Shown here: positions 19,402 to 34,600 of the stretch, piece by piece | Layout: each line of letters opens with the position of its first letter | Position numbering within the stretch: position 1 is the first letter of the stretch | Assembly: GCA_964530995.1 (NCBI GenBank) | Contig: CAZHCG010000002.1 | Span: 23,558 to 87,557 of the forward strand | Direction: 5' to 3' | Source of the DNA: an uncultured Myxococcales bacterium | GTDB lineage: Bacteria > Myxococcota_A > Polyangia > JAAYKL01 | Length of the DNA: 64,000 bases | Translations under genes and position numbers: made by a program | Notes under the pieces: generated by a model | Database searches by the model: none | What the model saw: the letters and a program-made list of their open reading frames with translations, nothing else | What the model was told of the DNA's origin: nothing

Positions 19402-19857
19402 ATGAGCTTCACCGAGCAGATGGCGCTGCTGCCGCGACCGGTGGCCGGAGCGGTCGAGGAGATGGTCGCGCGGGACGAGGTCGACCTCGTGCTCCTCTTC
19501 GGCTCGAGAGCGCGCGGAGAGCACGGTCCGATGAGCGACGTCGACCTCGCGGTGCGGACGAACGAGAACGTCGAGAACATTCACGATTGGAAGCTCGCGA
19601 CTCTGGCGCGACTGGCCGGACCCGTCCAGAGCGTAGACCTCGTGCTCCTCGAGCAGGCCTCCCCGGCCCTGCGCTACCGCGTCGCCCGGGACGGCCTCCC
19701 CCTGTGGACGCGGGACGAGCGCGCGCTCCACGCCTTTCGTTTCGAAGCCGTGCGCGACTGGCTCGACTTCGAGCCGGTGACGCGCGCCCACAACGCCGCC
19801 CTGGCCCGGCGAATCGCCGACGGGACCTTCGGAAAGGGGGAGCCGCGCGATGGTTGA
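19402..19857 (+). CDS. Nucleotidyltransferase (MNT-type antitoxin of a HepT/MNT pair)
   Basis: Pol-beta-type NTase motif LFGSRARGEHGPMSDVDLAV. Overlaps the downstream HEPN gene by 8 nt. Confidence 0.8.
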   Translation: MSFTEQMALLPRPVAGAVEEMVARDEVDLVLLFGSRARGEHGPMSDVDLAVRTNENVENIHDWKLATLARLAGPVQSVDLVLLEQASPALRYRVARDGLPLWTRDERALHAFRFEAVRDWLDFEPVTRAHNAALARRIADGTFGKGEPRDG

Positions 19858-20287
19858 TCCCGAGGTGATCCGCACCCGGATCGAGCACGCCGAGGAAGCG
19901 CTGCGCCGCCTGGCTGTCGTCCGCGCTCGTGGGCGTGAGGCCTTCCTCGCGAGTTGGGAGAATCGCGACATCGCCGAGCGGAACCTGCAAACGTTGATCC
20001 AGGCCGTGATCGACGTGGGCAACCACATCGTCACGGACGCCGGCTTGGGCGCTCCGGTACGCTACACCGACATCCTCGAGAAGATGTCGCGGGCCGGGGT
20101 GATCGCCGGCGACCTGGCGAGCCGGCTCGTGCCGGTCCTGGGCATGCGAAACGTGCTCGTCCACGAGTACGTCAAGCTCGAAGCCCAGAAGGTGTGGGAC
20201 GCGATCGCCGACACCTCGGCCATCGAGGAGATCATCGCCGCGGTGGCCGAGAGATGCCTGGCGCCCGGGGGTAAGGCGACATCCTGA
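19850..20287 (+). CDS. HepT-like HEPN RNase toxin (DUF86)
   Basis: 145 aa with the HEPN R-x4-HxY motif (RNVLVHEY) near the C-terminus. Confidence 0.8.
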   Translation: MVDPEVIRTRIEHAEEALRRLAVVRARGREAFLASWENRDIAERNLQTLIQAVIDVGNHIVTDAGLGAPVRYTDILEKMSRAGVIAGDLASRLVPVLGMRNVLVHEYVKLEAQKVWDAIADTSAIEEIIAAVAERCLAPGGKATS

Positions 20288-20301: not shown

Positions 20302-20517
20302 ATGAGAACCACGCTGAACATCGACGACGCCCTTCTCGCACAGGCGAGTAGCCTCACCGGGATCTCCGAGAAGACCGCGCTCGTGCGCGCGGGCCTCGAG
20401 GCGCTCGTCGAGCGCGAGAACGCCCGGCGCCTGACGCGGCTCGGCGGAAACGCGACGAGGCCTCCTGAAAATCGACCTTGCATCGCCGGCCCGGCAACGT
20501 GTAGCTTTTCGGCCTGA
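20302..20517 (+). CDS. Orphan VapB-like ribbon-helix-helix antitoxin / putative transcriptional regulator
   Basis: 71 aa. MRTTLNIDDALLAQASSLTG is a typical RHH N-terminus of VapB antitoxins. There is no PIN toxin downstream; the next gene is the 989-aa ORF 44 nt away. Confidence 0.6.
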   Translation: MRTTLNIDDALLAQASSLTGISEKTALVRAGLEALVERENARRLTRLGGNATRPPENRPCIAGPATCSFSA

Positions 20518-20561
20518 ATCTGGGTGGCCTCGGGCGTTACTCGATCGAGCTTGCGTGTTCA

Positions 20562-23531
20562 ATGGGAAGAAGAAAGAGAAAACGCAAGAAGCGTAGCGGT
20601 GGCGGCGGCGCGGCGGCGATCGGCGAGCTGGGAACCTCGGCGGAGGAAGCGGCGCGCGTCGAGGATCTCTTCCGCGGCGGCGCTTTCAGGGAGGCCCTCT
20701 CGCGAGCCAAGGCGCTGCACCGGCGCGACCGTACGGACGAGACCGAGGATCTCGTCGCCCGGGCCTACTCGGCGCGCGCCGACGCGATGATCGCCTCGGG
20801 GATGAGAGTCGAGGCGAAGGCCCTGCTCGACGTGGTCGAGAGCGATTTTCCCCGGCACCGCGAGATCGCGCTCCGCGGCCGGGCCTGCCTGGCGGCTTTG
20901 ACAGGGAAGGTCGACGCCCTGCTCGCTCCCCTGGCCCGCGACGATTTTCCAGAGGAGAAGCGGCGCGAGATCGAGGACGACATCCGGCGCTTCGTGGTCG
21001 ATCCGCGGCAGGTGGCCGGGTGCGGGGTTCTGAGCCGCGAGCACCCGCTGCGCCTCGCCGCCGGCGAGCTGTCCGCGGCGCTGGAGGCGGCGACGAGCGG
21101 GCCGGTCGGAGAGGAGGAGCTGGCCTGTCCGAGCGTGTCCCGCCGCAGCCCGCTGGCGCCCTGGAAGCTGCTCGCCCGCGCGATCGCCGCCTTCTACCGG
21201 CGCGACGACGCTGCGTGCGAGGAGCTGATCGGGGCGCTGCCGCCCGAATGCGCGCCCGCCGCGATCGCTCCGGCTTTCGGCGTCCTACTCGGCGGAGCGC
21301 GGCCGCGAATCGCCACGCCGCCGGTCGTGGCGCTGGTCGACGCCGTGCTCGGCGAGCGCGCTCGGCTGCGCGACGCCCTCGCCGCCGTGGACGAAACCAT
21401 CGCCGCGGGCAAGCGCCGGAAAGTGGGGCGGGTGGTCGGAGCGGCGATGAAGGAGTGCGAGCGGAGAGCGCCCGAGCTGGCACGGCGCCTCGCACAGCGG
21501 ATCGCGGCGCGGTGCTTGCTGGCGTACGTCCCGTTCGGTCATGTCCGCCGAGCGCTAGGCGGTAGAATAACGGTCGATTCCGATTTCTGGCGGCTGTTCG
21601 TGCGCACCAACGAGATCCTGGCCGAGCGCCACGGCGAGGCCGTATCGCTGTGCAACGCCTGCGCAGGCCTGGAGGAGCTCCGCAGGCACTCCCAGGCCGA
21701 GGGCCGGTTCTCGAAGGGCGGTCCAGAGGAAGCGACCCTCTATCTGCGCATGATCGACCTGCTCGATTGGCCACCCGACGCCGTCGTCGAGGAGGCGCGC
21801 GCCGTGTTCGAGGCGGAAGGGGGTGGGGATGGCCTGGCCCATCTCTACGAGGGCCAACCACCTGAAATCCGGGCGCGCTCTTCGCTGGTGGACGGATGTG
21901 ATTCGTACTTCCTCTACCCGGAGCTAATCTGGGAACGCGCGTGCCGCGCCGATCCGGATCCCGAGATTTTTTGCCGCAGGTTGGAGTGGACAGCGGCCAG
22001 GAACGGGGACTGGAGAGCGCTGGACGAGATTGCGCTCGCCTGGCGCGACGCCGCACCCGACGACGTGCGACCGCTCCTCCATCTGGCGCGCTCCGCCGAA
22101 AAGCGGGGCTCGCTGAACAAGGCGCTCGGACATGTCGAGCGCGCGGAGACGATCGAACCCAACCGAGGCGACGTGCAAAGGGCGCGGAGACGGCTGCTCA
22201 CGGCTACGGCGCGGCGACACCTGACGCAACGCAAGCTGCACCTGGTCGAGCGCGACCTCGACCGCCTGGGGCGACTGCCCGGCGCGGAAGAAGCCGGGAG
22301 ACGCGCGATGACAACGGCGCTGCGCTTTTGCAAGCACATCCTGTCGGGCGATATCGAGAGCGCGCGGAGCGGACTGGTCGCTCTGTACGAGCTGCTGGGC
22401 GATGAGCTGGCAGCCGGGGCGCTGTGCGAGGCGACGGCCGAGCCGGACGGCGCGCTCCTCTCCGCGGCCGGAAATCTCCTGCCGGACGCGCCCGCTCTCC
22501 TAGCTCCCGGCTCGATTGCGCTGGCGGCCGCGCGGGTCTGTGGGATCGGGGAGGATCACGAGACTCCGCTGGGCCCGCCCCGGCAGTGGAGGAGGAGAAT
22601 TCTCGACGATCTGGCCGCCGGATCGGGCGCGCTGGGAGCCGCCGAGCTGGCGGCTCTCGCCCGAGCCGCAACGCGCGCGCGCCAGTACGATTTGGCCTAC
22701 GCGGCTTCGGGTGCCGGATTGGCCCTCGGACCGCCGCACACGGCGCGTTTCTTGCTGCTGCGGGCCAATAGCCTGCCGCCATCGAGGTGGCTGCGGATCT
22801 TGATGTGCCTGCGGGCCGCGCTCGGTCTGGCCCGCAGACAGGGCGACAACCAGCTCGTCGCCGAGATCTTGACCGCCCACCGCGAGAGCGGGCGCCGAAC
22901 GAGGAGCCCTGCGTCGCCGCCGGGAGGCGGCGTGCTGGAAGAGCTGGATTTCTCCCGGACGGACGAGGTTGTCCTGCGGGAGCGGGAGGCGGCCTCAAGG
23001 CCCTCGTCGACAGGCTACGATCCGACGGACTCCTGGTGGACCGAGGAGCTGGCGCCGTGCGACTGCCCTGCCTGCCGGCGCGCGCGGGGGGAGCCGCCAT
23101 TGCCGCAGCAAGAGGAGTTCGAGGACGTTTTCGACCAGGGGGACGAGGAAGATTCGGTCATCGATTCGTTGGATTCGCTGGGCGAGATCCTGATGTCCCA
23201 GCTAAACATGCCCCCGGAGATGCTGCACGAGTTCGTCGAGGAGATGATCGACCGCGAGGGCAACCCCATGCCCGACCTGCCACCTCGGCTGGCTGCCTGC
23301 ATGCTCGAGATCGCGATTCGCTTCGGCCCCCGGATGATGGAGAATCCCGACCTGGAAGAGCTGAAAAAACGAGCTCCCGATCTCCACAGGCGCCTGGGCG
23401 AGGCGATACGCCAGACCGAGGCTTCCGGAGAGCTTCCGACCATTTGGTCCGAATCGACAGGACGCAAGAAGAGAAAAGACAAGAAGAAAAAGAACGGAAA
23501 AAAGAAAAAGAGAAAGAGCCGCCGTCGATAA
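20562..23531 (+). CDS. Large (989 aa) predicted all-helical hypothetical protein with polybasic N- and C-terminal tails
   Basis: A long uninterrupted ORF with no competing gene on either strand, 27 nt upstream of the J-like gene. N-terminus MGRRKRKRKKRSGGGG; C-terminus RKKRKDKKKKNGKKKKRKSRRR preceded by an acidic stretch. A CDCPACRRARGE Cys knuckle is present. No known catalytic motif recognised. Confidence 0.6.
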   Translation: MGRRKRKRKKRSGGGGAAAIGELGTSAEEAARVEDLFRGGAFREALSRAKALHRRDRTDETEDLVARAYSARADAMIASGMRVEAKALLDVVESDFPRHREIALRGRACLAALTGKVDALLAPLARDDFPEEKRREIEDDIRRFVVDPRQVAGCGVLSREHPLRLAAGELSAALEAATSGPVGEEELACPSVSRRSPLAPWKLLARAIAAFYRRDDAACEELIGALPPECAPAAIAPAFGVLLGGARPRIATPPVVALVDAVLGERARLRDALAAVDETIAAGKRRKVGRVVGAAMKECERRAPELARRLAQRIAARCLLAYVPFGHVRRALGGRITVDSDFWRLFVRTNEILAERHGEAVSLCNACAGLEELRRHSQAEGRFSKGGPEEATLYLRMIDLLDWPPDAVVEEARAVFEAEGGGDGLAHLYEGQPPEIRARSSLVDGCDSYFLYPELIWERACRADPDPEIFCRRLEWTAARNGDWRALDEIALAWRDAAPDDVRPLLHLARSAEKRGSLNKALGHVERAETIEPNRGDVQRARRRLLTATARRHLTQRKLHLVERDLDRLGRLPGAEEAGRRAMTTALRFCKHILSGDIESARSGLVALYELLGDELAAGALCEATAEPDGALLSAAGNLLPDAPALLAPGSIALAAARVCGIGEDHETPLGPPRQWRRRILDDLAAGSGALGAAELAALARAATRARQYDLAYAASGAGLALGPPHTARFLLLRANSLPPSRWLRILMCLRAALGLARRQGDNQLVAEILTAHRESGRRTRSPASPPGGGVLEELDFSRTDEVVLREREAASRPSSTGYDPTDSWWTEELAPCDCPACRRARGEPPLPQQEEFEDVFDQGDEEDSVIDSLDSLGEILMSQLNMPPEMLHEFVEEMIDREGNPMPDLPPRLAACMLEIAIRFGPRMMENPDLEELKKRAPDLHRRLGEAIRQTEASGELPTIWSESTGRKKRKDKKKKNGKKKKRKSRRR

Positions 23532-23558
23532 CGCGGAGGATCACCGAGGTCGAAACAG

Positions 23559-23867
23559 ATGGACGAGCATGTCGAAAACGACGATCCCTGGGCCGTTCTG
23601 GGAGTAGGGCACGACGCCACATCTGACGAGATACGCGGCGCCTACCTGGATTGTGTACGGCGCAACCCGCCCGAAGGGAACCCCGAAGCGTTCGAGCGGA
23701 TTCGCGACGCCTACGAGGCCATCTCCGATCCTCGCCGACGGATCGAGCGTCTGCTGCTCGCGGACGATCCGGAAAGACCGCTGGCGGCCCTGCTCGACGA
23801 TCTGCCGGCCGAGCGCCGCTTCGTCGGTCTCGGCCCCTGGCTGGCTGTCATCGCGAAAGGAAAATAG
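23559..23867 (+). CDS. J-like domain protein lacking the HPD motif
   Basis: 102 aa. DPWAVLGV...SDEIRGAYLDCVRRNPPEGNPEAFERIRDAYEAISDPRRR aligns to J-domain helices I-IV, but HPD is replaced by NPP. There is no G/F region, zinc finger or C-terminal substrate-binding domain. Confidence 0.6.
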   Translation: MDEHVENDDPWAVLGVGHDATSDEIRGAYLDCVRRNPPEGNPEAFERIRDAYEAISDPRRRIERLLLADDPERPLAALLDDLPAERRFVGLGPWLAVIAKGK

Positions 23868-23871
23868 GGAA

Positions 23872-24657
23872 ATGGAGGGCGAACAGCGGGACAGAGTCGA
23901 CCAGACGGCCTCTCGCGTGGCGGAGTGGGTCCGTGCTGTCCTCGCCGACGAGGCACCGCCGGCCGGTGTCGCCCCCGAGATCCTATCGGCTGCCGAGAGA
24001 AACGGGGGCAAGGGCGCGGAAAAGGGCGGCGGTTACGATCTGCACTCGCTGTGGTCGGCGCTGACGACCCTGGCCCGGGAGATCGGCCTCCAGGGGCGAT
24101 CGTTCGACCGACTCCGCGGCGACCTCTCCTCCGTGGCAGGACTTTCCGAGCGCGTGGACGCCGCGCTCGCCGCCTGCCGTGAGAACCCTACCGGAGCACA
24201 CGCCGGCCGCGAGGGCGAAGCGCACGAGTCGGTCCGGCGGGAGATGGTCGAGATACTGATCGATCTGCGCGAGCGGCTCGATCGGAGCCAGAACACGGCG
24301 CGGCGCGGGCTGGCTGCGGCGCGGGAGTCGGTCGCGTCCTCGTGGGTGCTGCGCGCGTTCGGCACGCGCGCCGCCGGACAAACGATCGAGGCGGCCGAGG
24401 CGATTGCCGACGGCGATCTGCTGGGCCTGGAGCGGATCGAGGAGCTGTTGCGCGAGTGGGGCGTGACCCGGTCGAAGTGCGAGGGGCGGCCTTTCGATCC
24501 CGCACGCATGCGAGCGGTGGAGATCGTGAGGACGGACGCCGAACCGGAAGGCCGGGTGCTCGGAGTCGTCCGCAACGGGTACGAGTGGCGGGGTCGGGTG
24601 ATCCGGCACGCCGAAGTCGAGGTCGCCAGGCGGGAGACAGAGGGAGAAGAACGATGA
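23872..24657 (+). CDS. Divergent GrpE-like nucleotide-exchange factor
   Basis: 261 aa. The C-terminal beta-domain matches GrpE (FDPARMRAVEIVRTD...GVVRNGYEWRGRVIRHAEVEVAR), after a long helical region. Its stop overlaps the Hsp70 start (ATGA). Confidence 0.65.
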   Translation: MEGEQRDRVDQTASRVAEWVRAVLADEAPPAGVAPEILSAAERNGGKGAEKGGGYDLHSLWSALTTLAREIGLQGRSFDRLRGDLSSVAGLSERVDAALAACRENPTGAHAGREGEAHESVRREMVEILIDLRERLDRSQNTARRGLAAARESVASSWVLRAFGTRAAGQTIEAAEAIADGDLLGLERIEELLREWGVTRSKCEGRPFDPARMRAVEIVRTDAEPEGRVLGVVRNGYEWRGRVIRHAEVEVARRETEGEER

Positions 24658-26447
24658 GCGGTGAGACGACGGCAGGTATCGATCTGGGTACGAGCAACTC
24701 GGAGATCGCGATGTTCGACGGAGACCGGGTGCGGGTGCTCGCTGCGGACGGCGAGGAGATGCTGCCTTCCTGCGTGGGGCTGTCCGCCTCCGGTGAGCTG
24801 CTCGTCGGCGCGCCGGCGCGCAACCAGCACTTGCTCTACCCGGAGCGCACCGCGCGTGGAATAAAGCGGATGATGGGCACGGAAGACGAGATCGAGCTGG
24901 GCGATCGCCGCTTCAGCCCCCAGGAACTCTCCGCCCTCTTGCTGCGCGAGCTGGTCGAGCGGGCCGCGCGCGAGTTGGGGAGCGCCCCTCGGCGGGCCGT
25001 GATCACGGTGCCGGCCTACTTCTCCGACGCCCAGCGGCAGGCCACTCGCGAGGCCGGGGCGCTGGCCGGCCTGGAGGTCGAGCGCATACTCAACGAGCCC
25101 ACCGCAGCCTGTCTGGCCTACGGCCGCGGGGGCGCCGGTGAGACCGTGATGGCTTACGATCTCGGCGGCGGAACGCTGGACGTCTCGCTGGTGCGCCTGG
25201 AGGGCAACGTGACCGAGGTGCTCGCTAGCCACGGCGACAACCGGCTCGGCGGAGACGATTTCACCCAGATCCTGTTCAATCGCCTCGCAGACGTCTTTGC
25301 CGAAGAGCACGGCATGGATCTCCGCCGCGGCGATCCGGCCGCCCGTTCCCGCCTGTGGTGGGCGGCGGAGGCGGCCAAGCGCAGGCTCAGCGAGGAGCCC
25401 TACGCCGAGATCAGGGAAGACGGGCTCGGCCAGCGCGACGGCAAGCCGCTGCACCTCGAGCTGGAGATCGGCAAAAACGAGTACGACGAGATGATCCGCC
25501 CGCTGGTGGAAAAGACGATGGAAAGCGTGACCCGGGCGATGGACGACTCCGGGGTCGGGGCTCGCGAGCTGGACGCCGTGCTGCTCGTCGGCGGCTCGAC
25601 ACGGACCCCGTTGGTTCGTGAACTGCTGCAAAATCGCCTCGAGCTCGAACCACACGAAGAAATCCACCCCGATCTGTGTGTGGCGCTGGGCGCGGGTGTG
25701 CTGGCCTCGAGAATCGACGGGCGGGAGGTCTCGAATGTGCTCGTGGACGTCTCGCCGTACTCGTTCGGCATCTCGTTCCTCGGCGAGCGGGGGGGCGCCC
25801 CCTACCCCTACTGCTACAGGCCGATCATCCGCGCCAACTCGGCGCTTCCGGTCACACGCACCGAACGCTATACGACCGCAACCCCCTATCAGCGCGAGGC
25901 CCGCATCGACGTCTTCCAGGGAGAAGACGCGGACGCGCTGCGCAACATCCCGGTGGGATCGTTCACCGTCGAGGATCTGAACCCCAGGGAGGACCCCAAC
26001 GAAATCCTGTGCAAGATGAGGTTGGATCTCGACGGAATGCTGAACGTCTCCGCGATCGAGAAGGAGACCGGACACGCCAAGCACGTCGCGATAGACGGCG
26101 CGCTGGCCCGCAAGAGCGAAGCGGAGATCGAAGCGGCCCGGGAGCGGCTGGAGACCCTTTTTGGCGACCGCGTCGGAGAGGGAGAAACCGCTGGAGCGGC
26201 GCCCGAGGACGCCTCCGGGCGAGACGGCTCGTCGGCGAGCCCGGACTGGCGCGAGGCAGTGGCACGTTCCGATGCGCTGGTCGGACGCTCGCAACGTCTG
26301 CTCGAGAAGATGCACGCCGAAGACAAGGAGGAGGCGATCGACCTCCACGAGGCGATTCGCCACGCGGTCGAGTCCGGCGACGAGGCCGCCCTGAGCGCTG
26401 CGGTGCGGGAGCTGGAGGATCTCGTGTTCTTCGTGGAGGGCAGATGA
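24654..26447 (+). CDS. Hsp70-family chaperone (DnaK paralog, 598 aa)
   Basis: GIDLGTSNS, DLGGGTLDVS and VLLVGGSTRTPLV NBD motifs, plus a substrate-binding domain (VLVDVSPYSFGISFLGE) and helical lid. Start verified at the ATG overlapping the GrpE-like stop. Shorter than canonical DnaK and not in a dnaK-dnaJ context. Confidence 0.85.
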   Translation: MSGETTAGIDLGTSNSEIAMFDGDRVRVLAADGEEMLPSCVGLSASGELLVGAPARNQHLLYPERTARGIKRMMGTEDEIELGDRRFSPQELSALLLRELVERAARELGSAPRRAVITVPAYFSDAQRQATREAGALAGLEVERILNEPTAACLAYGRGGAGETVMAYDLGGGTLDVSLVRLEGNVTEVLASHGDNRLGGDDFTQILFNRLADVFAEEHGMDLRRGDPAARSRLWWAAEAAKRRLSEEPYAEIREDGLGQRDGKPLHLELEIGKNEYDEMIRPLVEKTMESVTRAMDDSGVGARELDAVLLVGGSTRTPLVRELLQNRLELEPHEEIHPDLCVALGAGVLASRIDGREVSNVLVDVSPYSFGISFLGERGGAPYPYCYRPIIRANSALPVTRTERYTTATPYQREARIDVFQGEDADALRNIPVGSFTVEDLNPREDPNEILCKMRLDLDGMLNVSAIEKETGHAKHVAIDGALARKSEAEIEAARERLETLFGDRVGEGETAGAAPEDASGRDGSSASPDWREAVARSDALVGRSQRLLEKMHAEDKEEAIDLHEAIRHAVESGDEAALSAAVRELEDLVFFVEGR

Positions 26448-26728
26448 GCGCCGACCCGCCGAGATCGCGGTGCCCGGTCTGCCGGGCGCGCTTTCGCGGC
26501 ACGACCGGGTGTTCCCGCTGCGGCGCGGATCTCGAGCCGCTGATGACGATCGAGATTCTGGCCTGGCGAGCCAGGCAGGCCGCGCGCGCGGAGCTGCTCG
26601 CCGGCTCTCCGTCGAAAGCGATGCGGTGGGCCGTGCGCGCCCAGAGACTGCGCGCGACAGGCGCCGGGCGGGATCTCGAGATCCTGGCTGCGGCGCTGCT
26701 GGAGGCGGAAGAGCTGCTCGGAGAATGA
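26444..26728 (+). CDS. Small zinc-ribbon protein translationally coupled to Hsp70
   Basis: 94 aa with CPVC-x13-CSRC followed by an Ala/Arg-rich helix. Its ATG overlaps the Hsp70 stop (ATGA). Confidence 0.5.
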   Translation: MSADPPRSRCPVCRARFRGTTGCSRCGADLEPLMTIEILAWRARQAARAELLAGSPSKAMRWAVRAQRLRATGAGRDLEILAAALLEAEELLGE

Positions 26729-26774
26729 CCGGCGCTCCGGGGAGACGGCAAGAGATTTTCGTCGGGCCTCGTAA

Positions 26775-26882
26775 TCAACGCTCGTAGTGGCCGCCGATCG
26801 CCAGGACGTGGACGGCTTCGTCGTCGAAGGCGCAGACGATCTTTCGGCCAACTCTGATTGAATAGTACGGCTTTCCCGACTG
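26775..26882 (-). pseudogene. RelE/ParE-family toxin remnant (C-terminal 35 codons)
   Basis: Minus frame QSGKPYYSIRVGRKIVCAFDDEAVHVLAIGGHYER* matches the RelE/ParE C-terminus (YRxRVGDYRxxYxxDDExxxVxVLxxGHR). An in-frame TAA lies immediately upstream, so the N-terminal two-thirds is missing. Confidence 0.45.
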
Positions 26883-27185: not shown

Positions 27186-27452
27186 ATGGATCACAAGGAA
27201 ACGGCTACTCTCTCCATCAAGAAGGTTCCCGGCACGCTCAAGCGCCGCCTGGCACGCCGGGCCGCGGCCGCGCACCGCAGTCTGAACGGCGAGCTGCTCC
27301 ACATCCTCGAGTCGGCCGTGGCAGAGGCCCGGCCCGACGAGGAGGGGATCGAGGAACGGCTCGAGCGGCTGAAGGCCGTCCGGGAGGCGATCGGAGGCCC
27401 GGGGATGACCGACGAGCAAGTCGAAGCGGCCATCGCCGAGAAACGGCCTTGA
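27186..27452 (+). CDS. RHH antitoxin (FitA/VapB-like)
   Basis: 88 aa. TLSIKKVPGTLKRRLARRAAAAHRSLNGELLHILESAV is the RHH fold. Overlaps the PIN gene by 4 nt. An AT-rich promoter patch lies at 27140-27185. Confidence 0.7.
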   Translation: MDHKETATLSIKKVPGTLKRRLARRAAAAHRSLNGELLHILESAVAEARPDEEGIEERLERLKAVREAIGGPGMTDEQVEAAIAEKRP

Positions 27453-27853
27453 TCGTCGTCGATACCAACATCGTCGTGCCGCTCGTGATCCCGGGCGAGA
27501 GAACGGAGATCGTCGAGCGACTCTTGCGACGCGACCCGGCCTGGCGGGCGCCGCCGCTCCTGTTCTCGGAGCTGCGCAACGTGCTGCTCGCCTACTTTCG
27601 AAAAGGGCTGGCGACCCGTTCCCAGTGCCTGAACGCGATCGAGGCCGTCCGCGGGCTTCTCGACTCCCGGGCCGAAGACGAGCCGGATGACAGCCACGTG
27701 CTCCGGCTCGCCGGCGATTCGGGCTGCACAGCGTACGACTGCGAGTTCGTGGCCATGGCCGAGCGCCTGCGATGCCGGCTCGTCACCTGGGACCGGCAGG
27801 TGCTCGCGGCGTTCGGCGAGCGGGCCGTCACTCCCGAGGTCATTTGCGGCTGA
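27449..27853 (+). CDS. vapC: PIN-domain toxin VapC
   Basis: 134 aa. MIVVDTNIVV start, conserved acidic residues (D5, E in LFSELRNV, D in YDCEFVAMA). Confidence 0.8.
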   Translation: MIVVDTNIVVPLVIPGERTEIVERLLRRDPAWRAPPLLFSELRNVLLAYFRKGLATRSQCLNAIEAVRGLLDSRAEDEPDDSHVLRLAGDSGCTAYDCEFVAMAERLRCRLVTWDRQVLAAFGERAVTPEVICG

Positions 27854-27918: not shown

Positions 27919-27955
27919 GCACCCCGGCGAGCGTTCGCGACTATTGCGCTCGACC
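27919..27955 (+). repeat. 37-bp imperfect direct repeat, copy 2, overlapping the lspA stop codon
   Basis: gcaccccggcgagcgttcgcgactattgcgctcgacc. Positions 27941-27955 are the last codons and stop of lspA on the minus strand. Confidence 0.6.
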
Positions 27956-28576
27956 CGCCTTGTCCGCGGCGGGCTTCTTTGCGCGGTCGTCCTTCTTGCC
28001 CGGCAGCATCTGGAGGATCATCAACCCGATCCCGATCACGATCGCGGCGTCGGCCACGTTGAAGGTCGGCCAGTGGCGCTCGACTCCGCCCACGGTCACG
28101 TACCAGTCGACGAAATCGACCACGTAGCGGTAGACCAGCCGGTCGATCAGGTTGCCCACCGCGCCGCCCAGCACGAACGGCAGCGCGTAGAGCATCATCC
28201 GCTGCTCGGCCGGGGTCTTGCGGTACAGGTAGGGGATGAAGGCCGCCGCCAGCAGCGAGATCAGAATGAAAAAGGGGTAGCGGAACGACTCGGGCACGCG
28301 GCTCATCAGGCCGAAGGCGCTGGCGCAGTTCTCCACGTACTTGAAGTTGAACAGCCCGTCGATCACCTCGATCGACTCGCGGTGCCTCCGCACGAAGCGC
28401 TCGCGCGCGACCTCCTCGGCGCCGCTGGCGCAGACCGGGTACTCCTCGCCGCGGGCGTGGAAGGTCTCGTCGACCAGCGCGTGCAGGGCCCACTGCTTGC
28501 TGGCCTGGTCCGCCGCCACGGTCAGCGCGAACAGCACGACAAGACCGATCAGCGGCTTTTTCGCTCGTTTGGCCAC
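27941..28576 (-). CDS. lspA: Lipoprotein signal peptidase II
   Basis: 211 aa, four TM segments, conserved FNVADAAI and GAVGNLIDR motifs. Immediately downstream of ileS, the conserved ileS-lspA operon. Confidence 0.85.
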   Translation of the reverse strand: MAKRAKKPLIGLVVLFALTVAADQASKQWALHALVDETFHARGEEYPVCASGAEEVARERFVRRHRESIEVIDGLFNFKYVENCASAFGLMSRVPESFRYPFFILISLLAAAFIPYLYRKTPAEQRMMLYALPFVLGGAVGNLIDRLVYRYVVDFVDWYVTVGGVERHWPTFNVADAAIVIGIGLMILQMLPGKKDDRAKKPAADKAGRAQ

Positions 28577-28582
28577 GGCTGC

Positions 28583-31387
28583 TCAGACCTCCGCCTCGCC
28601 GCGCGCGACGAGATCCTCGACGACCCCGGCGCAGCGCGCGCACAGCTCGGGACGACGCGCGTCCTGTCCGATTCCGTGCCCGTAGCGCCAGCAGCGCGGG
28701 CACTTGGCGGCCTCGCTCCTGGAGGTGGTCACCGCGAGCGGACCTCGGCCCTCTTCCACCTCCACGCCCGAGACGATGAACAGGTCGGCCAGCGCCCGCC
28801 CGCCCACCTCGCGCAGCAGCTCCAGGGTCGCGCCCGAGGCGCGAATCCCGATCTCGGCCTCCAGCGAGTTGCCGATCTGCTTGGCAGCGCGCCGCTCCTC
28901 GAGCAGCTTGGTCACCTGCCGCCGCACCTCTCGCAGCGCTTCCATCCGATCGAGCAGCGCCTCGTCGCGCCACTGGCCGGGTACCTCGGGGAAGCCGGCC
29001 AGAAAGACCGAGTCCGGCTCTCCGGAGCCGGCCGGCAGGTTCTGCCAGACGTCCTCGGCGGTGAAGCTCAGCACCGGCGCCAGCGCGCGGGCGGTGTCGC
29101 GGGCCAGCGCGTACAGCACGGTCTGCGCCGAGCGCCGCGAAAGGCCCTCGGGCGCGTCGCAGTAGACGCGATCCTTGATGATGTCCAGGTAGAAGGAGGA
29201 CAGCTCCACCGTGGCCAGCTCGATCGTGCCGTGGAAGACGTGGTGGAAATCGTACTCGTCGTAGGCGCGATCGATCCTGTCCAGGTAGCGCCCGAAGCGC
29301 GCCAGCATCCAGCGATCCAGCTCGGTCATCTCTGCGAGCGGCACGGCGTGCTCGGCCGGGTCGAAGCCGTGCAGGTTGCCCAGCATGAAGCGGAAGGTGT
29401 TGCGGATCTTGCGGTACGACTCCACCAGGCTCTTGAGGATCCCCTGCGAGAACGCGATGTCCGAGCGGTAGTCCTCGTAGCCGACCCACAGCCTCAGGAT
29501 CTCGGCGCCCTGCTGGTCGACGATCTTCTGCGGCGGCACGAAGTTGCGCTGGCTCTTGGAGAGGATCTCGCCTTTCTCGTTGGTGATGAAACCGTGGGTC
29601 AGCACCGCGCGGTAGGGCGCGTGTCCGCGCGTCGCGGTCGCGGTCAGCAGCGCGGTGTGGAACCAGCCGCGGTGCTGGTCCGAGCCCTCGAGGTAGAGGT
29701 CGACCGGCACCGACATCCCCTCGCGCCGCTGGGCGACCGCGGCCCAGCTGACGCCCGACTCGAACCAGACGTCGACGATGTTGGCCTCCTTGCCGAAGGA
29801 ACGCCCGCCGCAGGCCGCGCATTCCACTCCGTCGGGCAGCAGCTCGGCGGCCTCGCGCTTCCACCACTCGTCGCTGCCGTGCTCGCCGAAGATCTTCGCC
29901 ACGTGGCGGATCACCCCGGCGTCGACCAGCGGCTCGCCGCACTTCTCGCAGAAGAAGAACGGCAAAGGCACGCCCCAGACCCGCTGGCGCGAGATGCACC
30001 AGTCCGGGCGGTTCTCCACCATTCCGTGGATGCGGTCGCGACCCCAGGGCGGAATCCAGCGCGTGCGATCGATCTCGGCCAGCGCCTCTTCGCGCAGGCC
30101 GGTGCGATCCATCGAGACGAACCACTGCGGAGTGGCGCGGAAGATCACCGGCTGCTTGCAGCGCCAGCAGGCCGGGTACTGGTGGTCGATCGTCTGGTCG
30201 GGCGGGTTGAGCAGCGCGCCGCTTTCTGCGAGGAGCTCGACGATCTCCGGGTTGGCGTCGAACACGCCCTTGCCGGCCCAGCGCTCGACCTCGTCGGTGA
30301 ACCTGCCGTTCTCGTCGACCGGCGCGTAGGCGTCTATTCCGTGCCCGGCGCACAGCACGTAGTCCTCCTGCCCGTGACCGGGCGCGGTGTGCACGCAGCC
30401 GGTCCCGGCCTCGAGCGTCACGTAGTCCGCGACCAGGATCGGCACCTCGCGCTCGATGAACGGGTGCCGCACGCGCAGCCCGGCCAGCCGCTGGCCGGGG
30501 ACGGCCCGCCCGAGCGGCTCGGCCTCGACCCGGCAGTCCCCAAAAGCTCTCTCGGCCATCTCCTCGGCCACGACCACCCGCTGCTCGCCGACCGCGTAGG
30601 CCCGGTAGCGGTACGAAGGGTGGACCGCGACGACCAGCGAGGCGGGCAGCGTCCAGGGGGTGGTCGTCCAGATCATGACCGAGGGCGGCGCGCCGTCCTT
30701 CTCCAGGCCGAGCGCCTCGGCCAGCTCGTCGGCGTCGAGCGCCGGATACGTTACGTAGATCGACGGCGAGGTGTGCTCGCCGTACTCGACCTCGGCCTCG
30801 GCCAGCGCGGTCCGGCAGCCGGCGCACCAGTAGACCGGTTTGTGGCCGCGGTAGACCAGGCCGCGCTCCACGATCCGCGCCAGCTCCTCGACGATCACCT
30901 GCTCGTAGTCGCGATCGATCGTGCGGTAGGCCTCGTCCCACAGCGAGAAGACGCCCAGGCGCCGCAGCTCGGCGAGCTGGTGGTTCGACCACTTCAGCGC
31001 GAACTGCTCGCAGCGCTTGCGGATCGAGAGCCGGTCCGCCTCGTCCGAGGGCTTGCCCAGCTCGCGCTCCACGTTGAGCTCGATCGGCAGTCCGTGGCAG
31101 TCCCAGCCCGGAATGTAGCGCACGTGCCGGCCCTTGAGCGAACGGTACTTGGTCACGATGTCCTTGAGCACCTTGTTCAGCACGTGCCCGTGGTGAATCC
31201 CGCCGTTGGCGTAGGGCGGGCCGTCGTGGAAGACGAAGCGCTCGCCGCCGGAGGTCTTGTCCAGCAGCCGCTCGTAGACCCGCTTCTCCTTCCACAGCTC
31301 GAGGAACTCCGGCTCCCGGCTGGAGAGCGAGGCCTTCATCGGAAAGCCGGTGCGCGGCAGGCAGATCGTGTCTTTGTAGTCGACCAT
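28583..31387 (-). CDS. ileS: Isoleucyl-tRNA synthetase
   Basis: 934 aa. HIGH-type motif (PYANGGIHHGH), KMSKS (ILSKSQRN variant region), editing domain, and a C-terminal zinc-binding CPRCW...CARC. Confidence 0.95.
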   Translation of the reverse strand: MVDYKDTICLPRTGFPMKASLSSREPEFLELWKEKRVYERLLDKTSGGERFVFHDGPPYANGGIHHGHVLNKVLKDIVTKYRSLKGRHVRYIPGWDCHGLPIELNVERELGKPSDEADRLSIRKRCEQFALKWSNHQLAELRRLGVFSLWDEAYRTIDRDYEQVIVEELARIVERGLVYRGHKPVYWCAGCRTALAEAEVEYGEHTSPSIYVTYPALDADELAEALGLEKDGAPPSVMIWTTTPWTLPASLVVAVHPSYRYRAYAVGEQRVVVAEEMAERAFGDCRVEAEPLGRAVPGQRLAGLRVRHPFIEREVPILVADYVTLEAGTGCVHTAPGHGQEDYVLCAGHGIDAYAPVDENGRFTDEVERWAGKGVFDANPEIVELLAESGALLNPPDQTIDHQYPACWRCKQPVIFRATPQWFVSMDRTGLREEALAEIDRTRWIPPWGRDRIHGMVENRPDWCISRQRVWGVPLPFFFCEKCGEPLVDAGVIRHVAKIFGEHGSDEWWKREAAELLPDGVECAACGGRSFGKEANIVDVWFESGVSWAAVAQRREGMSVPVDLYLEGSDQHRGWFHTALLTATATRGHAPYRAVLTHGFITNEKGEILSKSQRNFVPPQKIVDQQGAEILRLWVGYEDYRSDIAFSQGILKSLVESYRKIRNTFRFMLGNLHGFDPAEHAVPLAEMTELDRWMLARFGRYLDRIDRAYDEYDFHHVFHGTIELATVELSSFYLDIIKDRVYCDAPEGLSRRSAQTVLYALARDTARALAPVLSFTAEDVWQNLPAGSGEPDSVFLAGFPEVPGQWRDEALLDRMEALREVRRQVTKLLEERRAAKQIGNSLEAEIGIRASGATLELLREVGGRALADLFIVSGVEVEEGRGPLAVTTSRSEAAKCPRCWRYGHGIGQDARRPELCARCAGVVEDLVARGEAEV

Positions 31388-31649: not shown

Positions 31650-34600
31650 ATGAGGTGGTTCGTTTCTAGAGCGATGCTCTGCTGGCTCGCGGCCGGGATG
31701 CTCCTGGCCGCCTGCGGCGAGAAGGACGAGGAGGTCGAGGACGGCGAGCAGAACCAGCGCCCGCTGGCGGTGGCTGACGGTCCGACCCAGGTCTCGATCG
31801 GAGGCGCGGTCACGCTCGACGGCTCGGGCAGCAGCGATCCGGACGGCGACGAGATCGCCTACCTCTGGCAGCAGGTCTTCGGTCCCGCGGTGGACGGCTC
31901 CAGCCCGCTGGAGGAGACCCTCTCGTTCAACGCGCCGCTCGAGGAGGCGACGCTCGGGTTCCAGCTGGTTGTCAACGACGGGCTCGAGGAGTCGTTGCCG
32001 GCCTACGTCGAGTTCGACGTGGTCGACGACAACGCCTCGCCGGTCGCCGACGCGGGCGAGGACCAGGCGACGCCGGGCGGCGAGACAGTGACGCTCTCCG
32101 GCTCGGGCAGCGACTCGGACGGGGACGCGCTGAGCTACGAGTGGGCGCAGGTCAGCGGCGACTACGTGGAGCTGGACGGCTCCGACAGCGCCGAGTGCTC
32201 CTTCGTCGCTCCCGAGAGCAACACCGTGCTGGCCTTCGAGCTGAGCGTCTCCGACGGGCTGCACACCTCCGAGCCGGATCTGGTGCTGGTCACCGTGCTG
32301 TGGAGCGGCGCGCCCTACGCCGACGCCGGCCCGGACCAGGTGGTCGAGCCCGGCCAGAGCGTGGTGCTCGACGGCTCCGGGGTCGACCCGGACGGAGCGC
32401 CGCTCGACTACTCGTGGAGCCAGCTCTCGGGCGAGACGGTCTCGCTCTCGGCGGGCGACATCCCCGACCCGACCTTCACCGCGCCCCAGACCGGCGGGGA
32501 GCTGGTCTTCGAGCTGATCGTCTCCAACGAGGTGCACAGCAGCGATCCCGACCAGGTCACGATCGCGGTCGACCGGCGGCCGATCGCCGACGCCGGCGAG
32601 CTCCAGATCGTCGCGTCGGGCGAGGTGGTGCAGCTCGACGGCAGCGGCAGCCTGGATCCGGACGGCGACTCGCTGAGCTACGAGTGGTCGCAGATCGCAG
32701 GCTCTCCGGTCGCGCTGGACGATCCGTTCGCGGCGCAGCCCTCGTTCACCGCTCCGGACGAGGACGTCAGCCTCGTCTTCCAGCTGGTGGTCGCGGACTC
32801 CTACTCCGAGAGCTACGCCGACGCGGTCGCGATCCAGGTCCAGCACAACCGCCCGCCCGAGGCCGACGCCGGCTCCAACGTGGGCACGCTCAACGGCCAG
32901 ACCGCGATCCTGGAGGGCTCGGCCAGCGACCCGGACGGCGATTCGATCATCGAGTATCAGTGGGAGGTGATCGGCACCCCGCCGGGCGGGGACGACTACC
33001 AGCTGAGCGGCCAGAGCTCGCCGACCGCTCACTTCACCCCGTTCGCCAAGGGGGAGTACACCCTCTCGCTGGCGGCGGCCGACGCAGAGGGCTTCGGCGC
33101 TCCGGATCTGGTCACGGTCGACTCCGAGAACAACCCGCCCACGGCCGAGGCCGGCGAGGACGTCACCCTGGTCAACACCCAGACCGCGGTGCTGGCCGGC
33201 TCGGGCGGCGACTACGACGGCGACGATCTCGCCTACCAGTGGTCGGTGACCGGCTCCCCGCAGGACGCCGCTTGGGACCTGATCGACGGCGACACGGATC
33301 ACCCGCGGCTGACGCCCCACACCAAGGGGAGCTACACCGTGCAGCTGATCGTCGACGACGGCGAGGACGCCAGCGCGCCGGACACGCTGACGCTGACCGC
33401 GACCAACAATCCTCCCGAGGTGGACGCCGGCGACGACTTCTCGGTGGCCGAGCTGGCACCGGCCCAGCTGGCGCCCGCGGTCACGGACCCGGACGGAGAG
33501 ACGCTGGACTACTGGTGGGAGATCGTCTCCACCGATCCCGAGGGCTCGAGCGGCAGCTTTTCCGACGCGAGCGCCGAGGCGCCCGAGCTGAGCGCCGACT
33601 CGCTGGGTCGCTACACGCTGCGGCTGACGGTCACCGACGGCGACCTGGCCTCGGACTGGGACGAGGTGAGCGTCGACTTCTACACACTGCCCGGCGAGGA
33701 GGAGCACGTCTTCGTCGCGGTGGAGGGCGACGACGCGGGCGGCTCCTGCGGCAGCAAGGCCGCGCCCTGCGCCACGCTCGGAACCGCGGTCCAGCTCGCC
33801 GACGCCGAGGGCAAGGATGTGATCGTCTCGGCCGGCGAGTACCAGCTCGTCGACCGCTCCCTCGAGCTGCCGCCGGGCCTGCGCCTGCTGGGCGGCTACG
33901 ATCCGGACAGCTGGGAGCGCGACGTGGATCAGTTCGAGACCGTCGTGCGCCCGGGCGGCCGGGTCGAGGAGAGCGGGGCGCTGATCGGGGACGGCCTGGA
34001 CAACGACTGCGACGCGCTGGTCGACGAGCCCGAGTGCATTGTCGAGGAGGAGGTCTGCAACAACCGCGACGACGACTGCGACGGCGTGGTCGACGACGTG
34101 CTCGCGGGCGAGTGCGGAGACGAGCTGGAGCCCAACGACGCCTCGGGCGACGCGGCCGCGATAGATTTCGGCGTGGCCTACGAGGGACTGGAGATAGTCG
34201 ACAGCGACACCGCCGACTGGTTCAGCTTCGAGCTGGCGGAGCTTCCCTCGAGCGGCGAGGGCTGGGAGCTGGAGATCCAGCTCGCCTGCAGCGAGTACTG
34301 CCCGACCGACGCCGCCGAGCAGATCGGGCTCGAGGTCTACCTGGACGGCACCGATCCGGCCGACCTGTTCTACAGCGACGAGACCGTCTACAGCGGCGGA
34401 ACCCACTACCCGATCGAGATCGACGTGCCGGCCGCCGAGGCGCAGACCGGGACCTACTACCTGGCGGTCAGCGCTCCGGCCTACGGCGGCTACTACGGCA
34501 ATTCGGCCGGGTACGATCTGGTCGCGGCGCTGCGCGAGGCGGGGCACGATCCCCAGGCGGGCGGGCTGTACGACCGGGCGCGACCCGAGTGCCGCGACTC

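Follow-up and report, generated by a model that had tools for sequence, protein, structure and literature searches.

A mini J-domain protein with a variant HPD motif in a conserved five-gene cassette with an HscC-like Hsp70

A 64-kb stretch of DNA from an uncultured Myxococcales bacterium (GenBank assembly GCA_964530995.1, contig CAZHCG010000002.1), the whole of which is referred to here as the window, carries at 23559-23867 on the forward strand a short gene for a J-domain protein without the His-Pro-Asp (HPD) tripeptide. This gene, here termed mini-J, is the second of five tightly packed and co-oriented genes, in the order tetratricopeptide repeat (TPR) solenoid, mini-J, GrpE-like nucleotide-exchange factor (NEF), Hsp70 and zinc-ribbon protein. 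The genes and the features discussed below are as follows.

20562-23531, forward strand: gene 1, TPR-type solenoid, 989 aa, all-alpha; Lys/Arg-rich N and C termini, an acidic stretch, and CxCPxC near the C terminus
23559-23867, forward strand: gene 2, mini J-protein, 102 aa; J domain at about residues 9-68 plus a conserved C-terminal tail
23667-23675, forward strand: mini-J codons P37-P38-E39, at the positions of DnaJ His33-Pro34-Asp35 in the helix II-III loop (gapless alignments)
23814-23849, forward strand: mini-J C-terminal tail motif, R86-V97 (RRFVGLGPWLAV), a hydrophobic core with basic residues on either side; the tail peptide reads RRFVGLGPWLAVIAKGK
23872-24657, forward strand: gene 3, GrpE-like NEF, 261 aa; long N-terminal part without a Pfam match
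24654-26447, forward strand: gene 4, HscC-like Hsp70, 597 aa; catalytic and allosteric residues intact
26421-26444, forward strand: C-terminal eight codons of the Hsp70 (LVFFVEGR); family motif [EDS]-[LF]-[LV]-[FY]-[FY]-[VILM]-[EG]-G, typically ELLFFVEG
26444-26728, forward strand: gene 5, zinc-ribbon protein, 94 aa; CPVC-x10-CSRCGADLxPLM, then a helical region; ATGA start overlap with the Hsp70 stop

The mini-J protein and its variant motif

The mini-J open reading frame (ORF) begins with ATG and encodes only 102 residues, as an earlier sequence-only reading of this DNA had stated. The recognition in that reading of J-domain helices I-IV is borne out by both profile and structural comparison. 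The Pfam DnaJ profile (PF00226) matches at 35.1 bits (E 1.5e-8), above its gathering cut-off of 27.8, and an AlphaFold2 model, for which an alignment of 15 homologs served as input, has a predicted local distance difference test score (pLDDT) of 88-94 across residues 11-60, with predicted helices at 10-14, 22-35, 42-56 and 58-68. Among the 50 Protein Data Bank matches listed by Foldseek for this model, essentially all are J domains or J-domain proteins; solved J domains superpose with root mean square deviations (rmsd) of 1.3-2.0 Å, including DnaJ from its complex with DnaK (5nro_B, 2.0 Å over 62 columns) and 2och (1.9 Å). The sequence-only reading had named a failure to fold as a J domain in structure prediction as grounds for giving it up; the prediction gives a J fold. 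The NCBIfam J-protein models score no more than 25.9 bits, against cut-offs of at least 338. By profile and predicted structure, the ORF is a genuine, albeit non-canonical, J-domain protein.

The HPD tripeptide, which is present in ~99% of J domains (PMC13580251), occurs nowhere in mini-J. It had been proposed that HPD is replaced by Asn-Pro-Pro; the absence of HPD stands, but the proposed register is off by one. A HMMER profile alignment to solved J domains equates N36 with DnaJ Tyr32, P37 with His33, P38 with Pro34 and E39 with Asp35, and the same register is obtained by MAFFT with Escherichia coli DnaJ, DjlA, DjlB and DjlC and the J domain of a response regulator encoded elsewhere in the window, both alignments running without gaps through helix II. 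The motif is P-P-E, i.e. the histidine is lost, the proline is retained and the aspartate is conservatively replaced by glutamate, in a loop that is modelled with a pLDDT of ~94. Type IV J-domain proteins (JDPs) have a clear J domain with a non-conservative replacement in HPD (PMC13254874); judged by its sequence mini-J is such a type IV, or pseudo-, JDP, with a recognisable J domain and His replaced by Pro.

The variant motif is shared by a large family. A protein database search returned 15 close homologs of mini-J (48-61% identity, 90-123 aa), in the alignment of which 22 positions are invariant, including P37 and P38 (15/15) and the helix III segment F45-E46-R47-I48-R49-D50-A51. When the mini-J profile was searched against 1.84 billion cluster representatives (50%-identity clusters), 733 proteins matched at E≤1e-10; the majority of the best 150 of these are ~100 aa in length and cover the full profile. 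In a table of 158 short sequences, made up of representatives and close homologs, x-P-P-[D/E] occupies the motif in 137 (87%), the remainder having mostly x-[S/G/A]-P-[D/E], and a single sequence has HPD. The His-less motif is thus a fixed character of the family, rather than the product of decay in one genome. The residue preceding P-P is H, F, Y, C, N or S, as would be expected at the position of DnaJ Tyr32.

No known domain was found C-terminal to the J domain, in agreement with the sequence-only reading that client-binding domains are lacking. That description omits a 35-residue extension with a conserved motif: RRFVGxxPW is common to all 15 homologs, with R86, V89, G90 and W94 invariant (15/15), and tail residues 91-101 are predicted by AlphaFold2, with low confidence, to be helical. 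The tail is presumed to be a partner-binding or pseudo-substrate element.

Two multi-J matches in the representative search (P0029 and P0120) proved to be ordinary HPD repeats outside the mini-J family. Separately, two membrane proteins that scored on the mini-J profile (P0153 and P0160) have two or three tandem degenerate J-like domains with Y-P-[D/E]-H-F in place of HPD, and look like a separate HPD-less J-like family.

The cassette and its Hsp70

A genome scan, using one genome per species, gave 52 loci with mini-J family members. In these 52 species genomes, from about nine phyla, the gene order is the same as in the window and the cassette is complete wherever the contig permits. The carriers include Polyangia; Bryobacteraceae, Terriglobia and other Acidobacteriota; Tepidisphaerales, Phycisphaerales and other Planctomycetota; and Desulfobacteraceae, Desulfatiglandales, Nitrospirales, Lentisphaerae, Riflebacteria and Leptospirales, together with two bins, one alphaproteobacterial and the other actinobacterial and probably mis-binned. 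A homolog (~820-1050 aa) of the 20562-23531 protein lies 5' of mini-J in 51 of the 52 loci, the contig ending there in the 52nd; the GrpE-like gene is likewise present in 51, and the zinc-ribbon gene directly follows the Hsp70 gene in all 47 loci with a contig reaching that far. Clustering of all ORFs in the 52 loci revealed no other conserved neighbour gene, and in none of them is there a second J domain within ±8 kb of the cassette.

The junctions between the window genes are a 27-nt gap, a 4-nt gap and two 4-nt ATGA overlaps, and packing is equally tight in one acidobacterial locus; scans of the DNA (68-70% GC) for promoters and terminators gave nothing informative. The earlier description of mini-J as the first chaperone gene of an Hsp70 operon is correct in that the GrpE-like and Hsp70 genes follow on the same strand, but the operon starts with the 989-aa TPR-like gene, and its last gene is that for the 94-aa zinc-ribbon protein. 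With the closest relative, a Polyangia metagenome-assembled genome (locus L001, 89% identity), homology spans exactly 20471-26841 and the flanks differ. The sole further segment common to both (8689-8971 of L001, 1-283 of the window) lies ~20 kb away and is inverted in the window, which points to rearrangement around the cassette between close relatives.

The cassette Hsp70 has a Pfam HSP70 score of 389.7 bits, but falls under the NCBIfam equivalog cut-offs for DnaK (433 vs 648 bits) and also for HscA. In a residue table from an alignment of 45 cassette Hsp70s to E. coli DnaK, the catalytic residues D8, K70, E171, D194, T199 and D201, the allosteric residues P143, D148, R151, D326, D393, D481 and L484, and R167, N170, T173 and P419 are each kept in 41-45 of the 45 sequences. 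The interdomain linker is hydrophobic (RVLVD in the family, NVLVD in the window). The protein has three indels regarded as hallmarks of HscC (Mayer 2021, PMC8215388), i.e. loss of DnaK residues 76-101, an insertion in loop L1,2 of the β-subdomain of the substrate-binding domain (SBDβ; 8 residues in the window Hsp70, 4 in HscC), and a lid deletion of ~9-10 residues at the same place. All three are absent from HscA in an alignment with E. coli DnaK, HscA and HscC, and a small neighbour-joining tree places E. coli HscC as sister of the cassette Hsp70 clade. In contrast to HscC and HscA, the cassette protein retains both the 274-295 region and one salt bridge (R55-E267) at the nucleotide cleft, which fits the presence of its own GrpE-like gene.

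All 45 aligned cassette Hsp70s end in the ELLFFVEG motif plus 1-3 residues. Eukaryotic TPR co-chaperones dock on the C-terminal EEVD of Hsp70 and, by analogy, an EEVD-like docking role is inferred for this peptide. The tail of HscC has likewise been described as aliphatic and acidic.

The other three components are less readily placed. The TPR solenoid has 69 detectable homologs, all annotated as 'hypothetical' and without a Pfam domain. Its AlphaFold2 model (pLDDT 84.7) is all-helical, with 53 helices, and Foldseek returns only generic TPR scaffolds (IFT-A, Ski3, subunits of APC, Ctr9) at TM<0.25. The N terminus (20562-20600) reads MGRRKRKRKKR and the C-terminal ~25 residues (23460-23531) are nearly all Lys or Arg; many homologs have a basic C terminus (..KKGRRR) following a poly-acidic stretch and a CxCPxC motif. 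The composition of these termini suggests nucleic-acid or membrane binding. The GrpE-like protein matches Pfam GrpE over residues 155-252 with 57.1 bits (cut-off 25.8), and is under every NCBIfam GrpE cut-off (at most 45.9 bits vs at least 137). The zinc-ribbon protein has the motif CPVCxARFRGxxxCSRCGADLxPLM across loci, and its Pfam zinc-ribbon matches are all sub-threshold.

The J/Hsp70 interface and the probable role of mini-J

In the complex of DnaK with a J domain, J residues R22, K26, R27, K48 and K51 face DnaK E206, D211, E217 and D477; His33 bonds to the backbone of linker residue L391, Pro34 packs on P419, Asp35 bonds to R167 and Q378, and the K48-D477 contact joins the J domain to the substrate-signal path (Mayer 2021). 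Some of these J residues are kept in the mini-J family, including R22 (R26, invariant), Pro34, Asp35 (as D/E) and K51 (as R49). Others are changed: K48, E49 and K26 are replaced by invariant residues (Glu, at E46, Arg and Leu, respectively), K23 by Ala/Gly and R19 by Asp/Glu, with R27 being variable. In the three J-Hsp70 residue pairs that co-evolve most strongly, the J residue is at position 19, 23 or 26 (PMC5519331).

On the Hsp70 side, P419 and R167, the partners of J Pro34 and Asp35, are invariant in the cassette proteins. For position 477, the comparison with ordinary DnaKs comprised the three E. coli proteins DnaK, HscA and HscC, together with chains from Geobacillus and Thermus. In the cassette Hsp70s this residue is Arg/Lys in 28 of 45, Ser/Asn in 17 and acidic in none; 120 further homologs have R (90), S (11), N (7), H (6) or K (3) there, and none has D/E. 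Other changes are E206 to T/R, Q378 to L/M, V389 to R and N187 to R/K. Aligned in this way, the K48-D477 contact is charge-reversed on both sides in the cassette pair, and the changes as a whole are inferred to be a correlated remodelling of one interface, at the level of family differences. Such remodelling implies that mini-J likely docks its own Hsp70 canonically, the two being kept apart from the housekeeping system.

The reading that we favor is that mini-J is probably the dedicated co-chaperone of the cassette for the HscC-like Hsp70, in a co-evolved and insulated pair. Mini-J would dock, via helices II and III, at the canonical site formed by the nucleotide-binding domain, the linker and SBDβ of its own Hsp70, with its retained Pro and Asp/Glu still touching P419 and R167, and with the hydrogen bond from His33 to the linker being either dispensable or compensated for in the remodelled interface. 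The same remodelling would separate mini-J and its Hsp70 from housekeeping DnaK/DnaJ. Mini-J might then act as the ATPase trigger or coupling factor of the cassette, with the GrpE-like NEF recycling the Hsp70, and the TPR protein may be the docking site of the invariant Hsp70 C terminus, in the manner of eukaryotic EEVD. DnaK-type clefts favor a hydrophobic core between basic residues. The basic-hydrophobic-basic tail, RRFVGxxPW, has this composition and so may tether mini-J to a partner, which could be the TPR scaffold, with the tail as a handle, or the substrate cleft of the Hsp70, with the tail as a tethered pseudo-substrate.

The stronger proposal, that a His-less P-P-[D/E] J domain truly triggers ATP hydrolysis, within an insulated and self-contained five-protein machine with an EEVD-like docking peptide, is made tentatively, and we would put it at rather less than even. 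There is precedent in that a J-domain analogue designed without HPD stimulates Hsc70 (reviewed in PMC13254874). The earlier suggestion that mini-J acts as a regulator rather than an activator is one that the indirect evidence, i.e. the conserved P-P-[D/E], the P419/R167 pair and the charge reversal, leans against.

Several observations weigh against the favored reading. H33Q kills ATPase stimulation in every J/Hsp70 pair tested, HPE being the only variant known to be tolerated (Mayer 2021; PMC13254874), and a Pro cannot supply the hydrogen bond that His33 makes with the linker. Only one pair, seen at the family level, makes up the charge reversal, and about one third of the Hsp70s have Ser/Asn, not Arg/Lys, at 477; because E46 is invariant, it cannot provide covariation within the family, and for the first residue of the motif, or its D/E, compared with Hsp70 477/378, no clear pattern was seen beyond phylogeny. 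Since R167, P419 and D481 also serve the internal allostery of Hsp70, their conservation is no proof of J contact. Further, the window mini-J departs from its family at two interface positions, having Gly at the R36 equivalent and Asn as the first motif residue.

An alternative is that mini-J is a pseudo-J protein, of Pam16-like or type IV character, which binds the Hsp70 or another partner by its J fold without being able to trigger ATP hydrolysis. It would serve as a recruiter, an anchor (e.g. to the TPR scaffold) or a brake, and the Hsp70 would depend for its cycle on substrate alone or on a J protein from another part of the genome. We regard this as unlikely, though it is to be taken seriously. 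His33 is gone, and its change to Gln alone abolishes function in every system tested; of the five basic J residues used for positioning on Hsp70, three are lost (K26 to Leu, R27 variable, K48 to Glu), and reviews treat recruitment without stimulation by HPD-less JDPs as possible (PMC13254874). By contrast, P-P-[D/E] is fixed in the loop, counterparts of Pro34 and Asp35 being kept, where the Pam16 loop drifts (DKE/DKS), there are complementary changes on the Hsp70 side, and none of the 52 loci has a canonical J partner gene within ±8 kb. Nor does membership of the Pam16 type, which the sequence-only reading gave as an example of HPD-less J-like regulators, find support: there is no match to the Pam16 family, PF00226 being the only match at E≤1, and the family profile matches 47 solved J domains, with no Tim16/Pam16 chain among them.

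A different kind of alternative, compatible with the other readings, is that the cassette is a conflict or defense module, with the Hsp70 cycle switching the TPR protein instead of serving proteostasis. The spread over phyla is patchy and the unit self-contained; the cassette lies among three toxin-antitoxin modules in the window, ParE/RelB genes and an integrase remnant are found near another cassette locus, and Hsp70+GrpE modules occur in described conflict systems (PMC7159879). However, PADLOC gave no match at E≤0.01 for any of the five proteins, an effector-like enzymatic domain is absent, no cassette copies were found on IMG/VR viral contigs or PLSDB plasmids, and the GTPase-centred Hsp70 systems that have been described are built of other components. 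On this evidence such a role appears improbable.

It had also been suggested that the Hsp70 has its true activator in the response-regulator J domain (41610-43646), with mini-J as a modulator. This J domain, of the YHPD type, is indeed the sole canonical HPD J domain of the 64-kb window and the only J domain there other than that of mini-J. The role proposed for it is without support, and we consider it very improbable: across about nine phyla the cassette has flanks that are unrelated, the closest relative shares the cassette alone, and within 8 kb of the cassette no locus has a J domain besides mini-J, so that the 15-kb proximity looks accidental. Moreover, it is of the ordinary long-loop YHPD type, and the cassette Hsp70 lacks the acidic residues at 477 and 206 that are used by canonical J domains. 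Finally, that mini-J is a drifting fragment of a decayed dnaJ, which has lost HPD and the C-terminal domains, accords with its short length and missing HPD but is hardly conceivable and effectively refuted by the conservation data, given hundreds of ~100-aa homologs, 22 invariant positions including the variant motif and tail, the fixed position in the cassette and a confidently predicted fold.

Related systems, genomic surroundings and implications

The closest known system is that of HscC with DjlB/DjlC, as reflected in the HscC-type indels of the cassette Hsp70 and the sister position of E. coli HscC in the neighbour-joining tree. The II-III loop of mini-J is short and matches that of DjlB/DjlC in length, and helix II has the 'IRxAYL' sequence found in both. 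DjlB/DjlC also deviate from HPD, in their case reading HPE; HPE is the only tolerated HPD variant known, and DjlB/DjlC partner HscC (PMC13254874). The likeness probably extends to an exclusive, co-evolved J/Hsp70 pair, and it includes the E. coli hscC locus, where repeat-scaffold genes (Sel1-repeat ybeQ/ybeT) adjoin, giving a layout of repeat scaffold, J protein and specialised Hsp70 that parallels the cassette, although homology between the scaffolds was not found. In E. coli K-12 (672000-690000), duplicated ybeQ(Sel1)-ybeR(DUF1266)-djlB and ybeT(Sel1)-ybeU(DUF1266)-djlC sets lie beside hscC. The possibility that the TPR protein is a detached C-terminal domain of DjlB/DjlC was rejected (hhalign probability ~1%).

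There are also clear differences. Mini-J has Pro at the His33 position and is 102 aa in length, compared with ~480 aa for DjlB/DjlC. HscC, which is thought to need no NEF (PMC8215388), is without the 274-295 region, whereas the cassette Hsp70 keeps it together with R55-E267 and has its own GrpE-like gene; further, a zinc-ribbon gene belongs to the cassette unit, unlike in the HscC system.

Pam16/Tim16 is similar in having a J fold without HPD beside an Hsp70 and a GrpE-type NEF. It differs in its loop, which is DKE/DKS with no retained Pro-Asp (PMC13254874). Pam16 pairs with a true HPD J protein, namely Pam18; as judged by the genomic proxy, none of the 52 loci has a gene for a J protein of this kind within ±8 kb of the cassette, but one might be encoded farther away. 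AtcJ of Shewanella is described (PMC6715715) as a J protein of ~100 aa, encoded in an operon with its partners (atcJABC) and having a short conserved C-terminal extension, of 21 aa, which is the partner-binding element. As described there, AtcJ differs in having a functional HPD and using housekeeping DnaK, with no dedicated Hsp70 or NEF in the operon. Identity of mini-J with AtcJ was rejected (NCBIfam NF050028, 16.5 bits vs a cut-off of 150). DNAJB13 (HPL) is, like mini-J, a type IV JDP with a non-conservative HPD replacement (PMC13254874). By contrast, the replacement in mini-J is fixed across a large family, with a dedicated, co-varying Hsp70 next door, which argues for positive selection rather than loss of function. 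The eukaryotic EEVD/TPR arrangement is paralleled by the combination of an invariant Hsp70 C-terminal peptide with a TPR gene in the same operon; the cassette motif is, however, hydrophobic and its interaction putative, and for the cassette TPR protein, a solenoid of ~900 aa, no homology to Hop or CHIP is detectable.

Further candidates were considered and rejected. The canonical DnaK-DnaJ-GrpE system does not fit, as the Hsp70, GrpE-like and J proteins are all below their NCBIfam equivalog cut-offs. The GTPase-centred Hsp70+GrpE systems of Kaur et al. 2020 have a GAP1-N2 GTPase and FNIII-DnaJ and occur in other phyla, and no such genes are conserved near the cassette. Myxococcus SglK/GrpS is a bicistronic grpS-sglK arrangement with a true PRK00290 DnaK and no adjacent J gene, whereas the cassette Hsp70 is below the DnaK cut-off. 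The cyanobacterial DnaK1/DnaJ3/GrpE system appears to be a different, canonical one. Neither a P-P-[D/E] J family nor the five-gene cassette was found to be described in the literature searched, a set that does not include the main survey of bacterial JDPs, where a prior description is possible.

As to the surroundings, a nucleotidyltransferase/HepT pair of MntA-HepT type (19402-20287) and an orphan VapB antitoxin gene (20302-20517) lie upstream of the cassette, and a FitA-like ribbon-helix-helix/PIN pair (27186-27853) lies downstream; none of these toxin-antitoxin genes adjoins the cassette in the 89%-identical L001. The response regulator at 41610-43646 (678 aa) has the arrangement REC, DUF4388, J (YHPD, long II-III loop) and TPR, from which it could recruit an Hsp70; on the present data it has no relation to the cassette. 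At 31650-35804, adjoining lspA-ileS (27941-31387, minus strand), is a gene for a 1384-aa protein with an N terminus resembling a signal peptide or lipobox, about seven K319L-like PKD domains and, in addition, domains of Big_9/cadherin-like type; its C-terminal region has many acidic residues and Cys.

A 2026 review describes as 'enigmatic' whether HPD deviations are accidents or positively selected, and makes the role of such proteins a priority (PMC13254874). In this regard the mini-J family may be viewed as a natural experiment on whether an Hsp70 can be driven without HPD, with the substitution fixed over hundreds of lineages, with the right partners known because the cognate Hsp70 and NEF are encoded next door, and with visible, testable candidate compensations, such as E46 of J paired with R477 of Hsp70, and Pro in place of His33. 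The cassette would provide an orthogonal Hsp70/J/NEF triad, which is potentially useful as an insulated chaperone module, and would add to the poorly understood HscC branch a five-gene form that depends on GrpE and is widely distributed, among others in Acidobacteriota, Planctomycetota and Desulfobacterota. If a His-less J domain does prove to trigger its Hsp70, the 'invariant' HPD would not be the sole solution.

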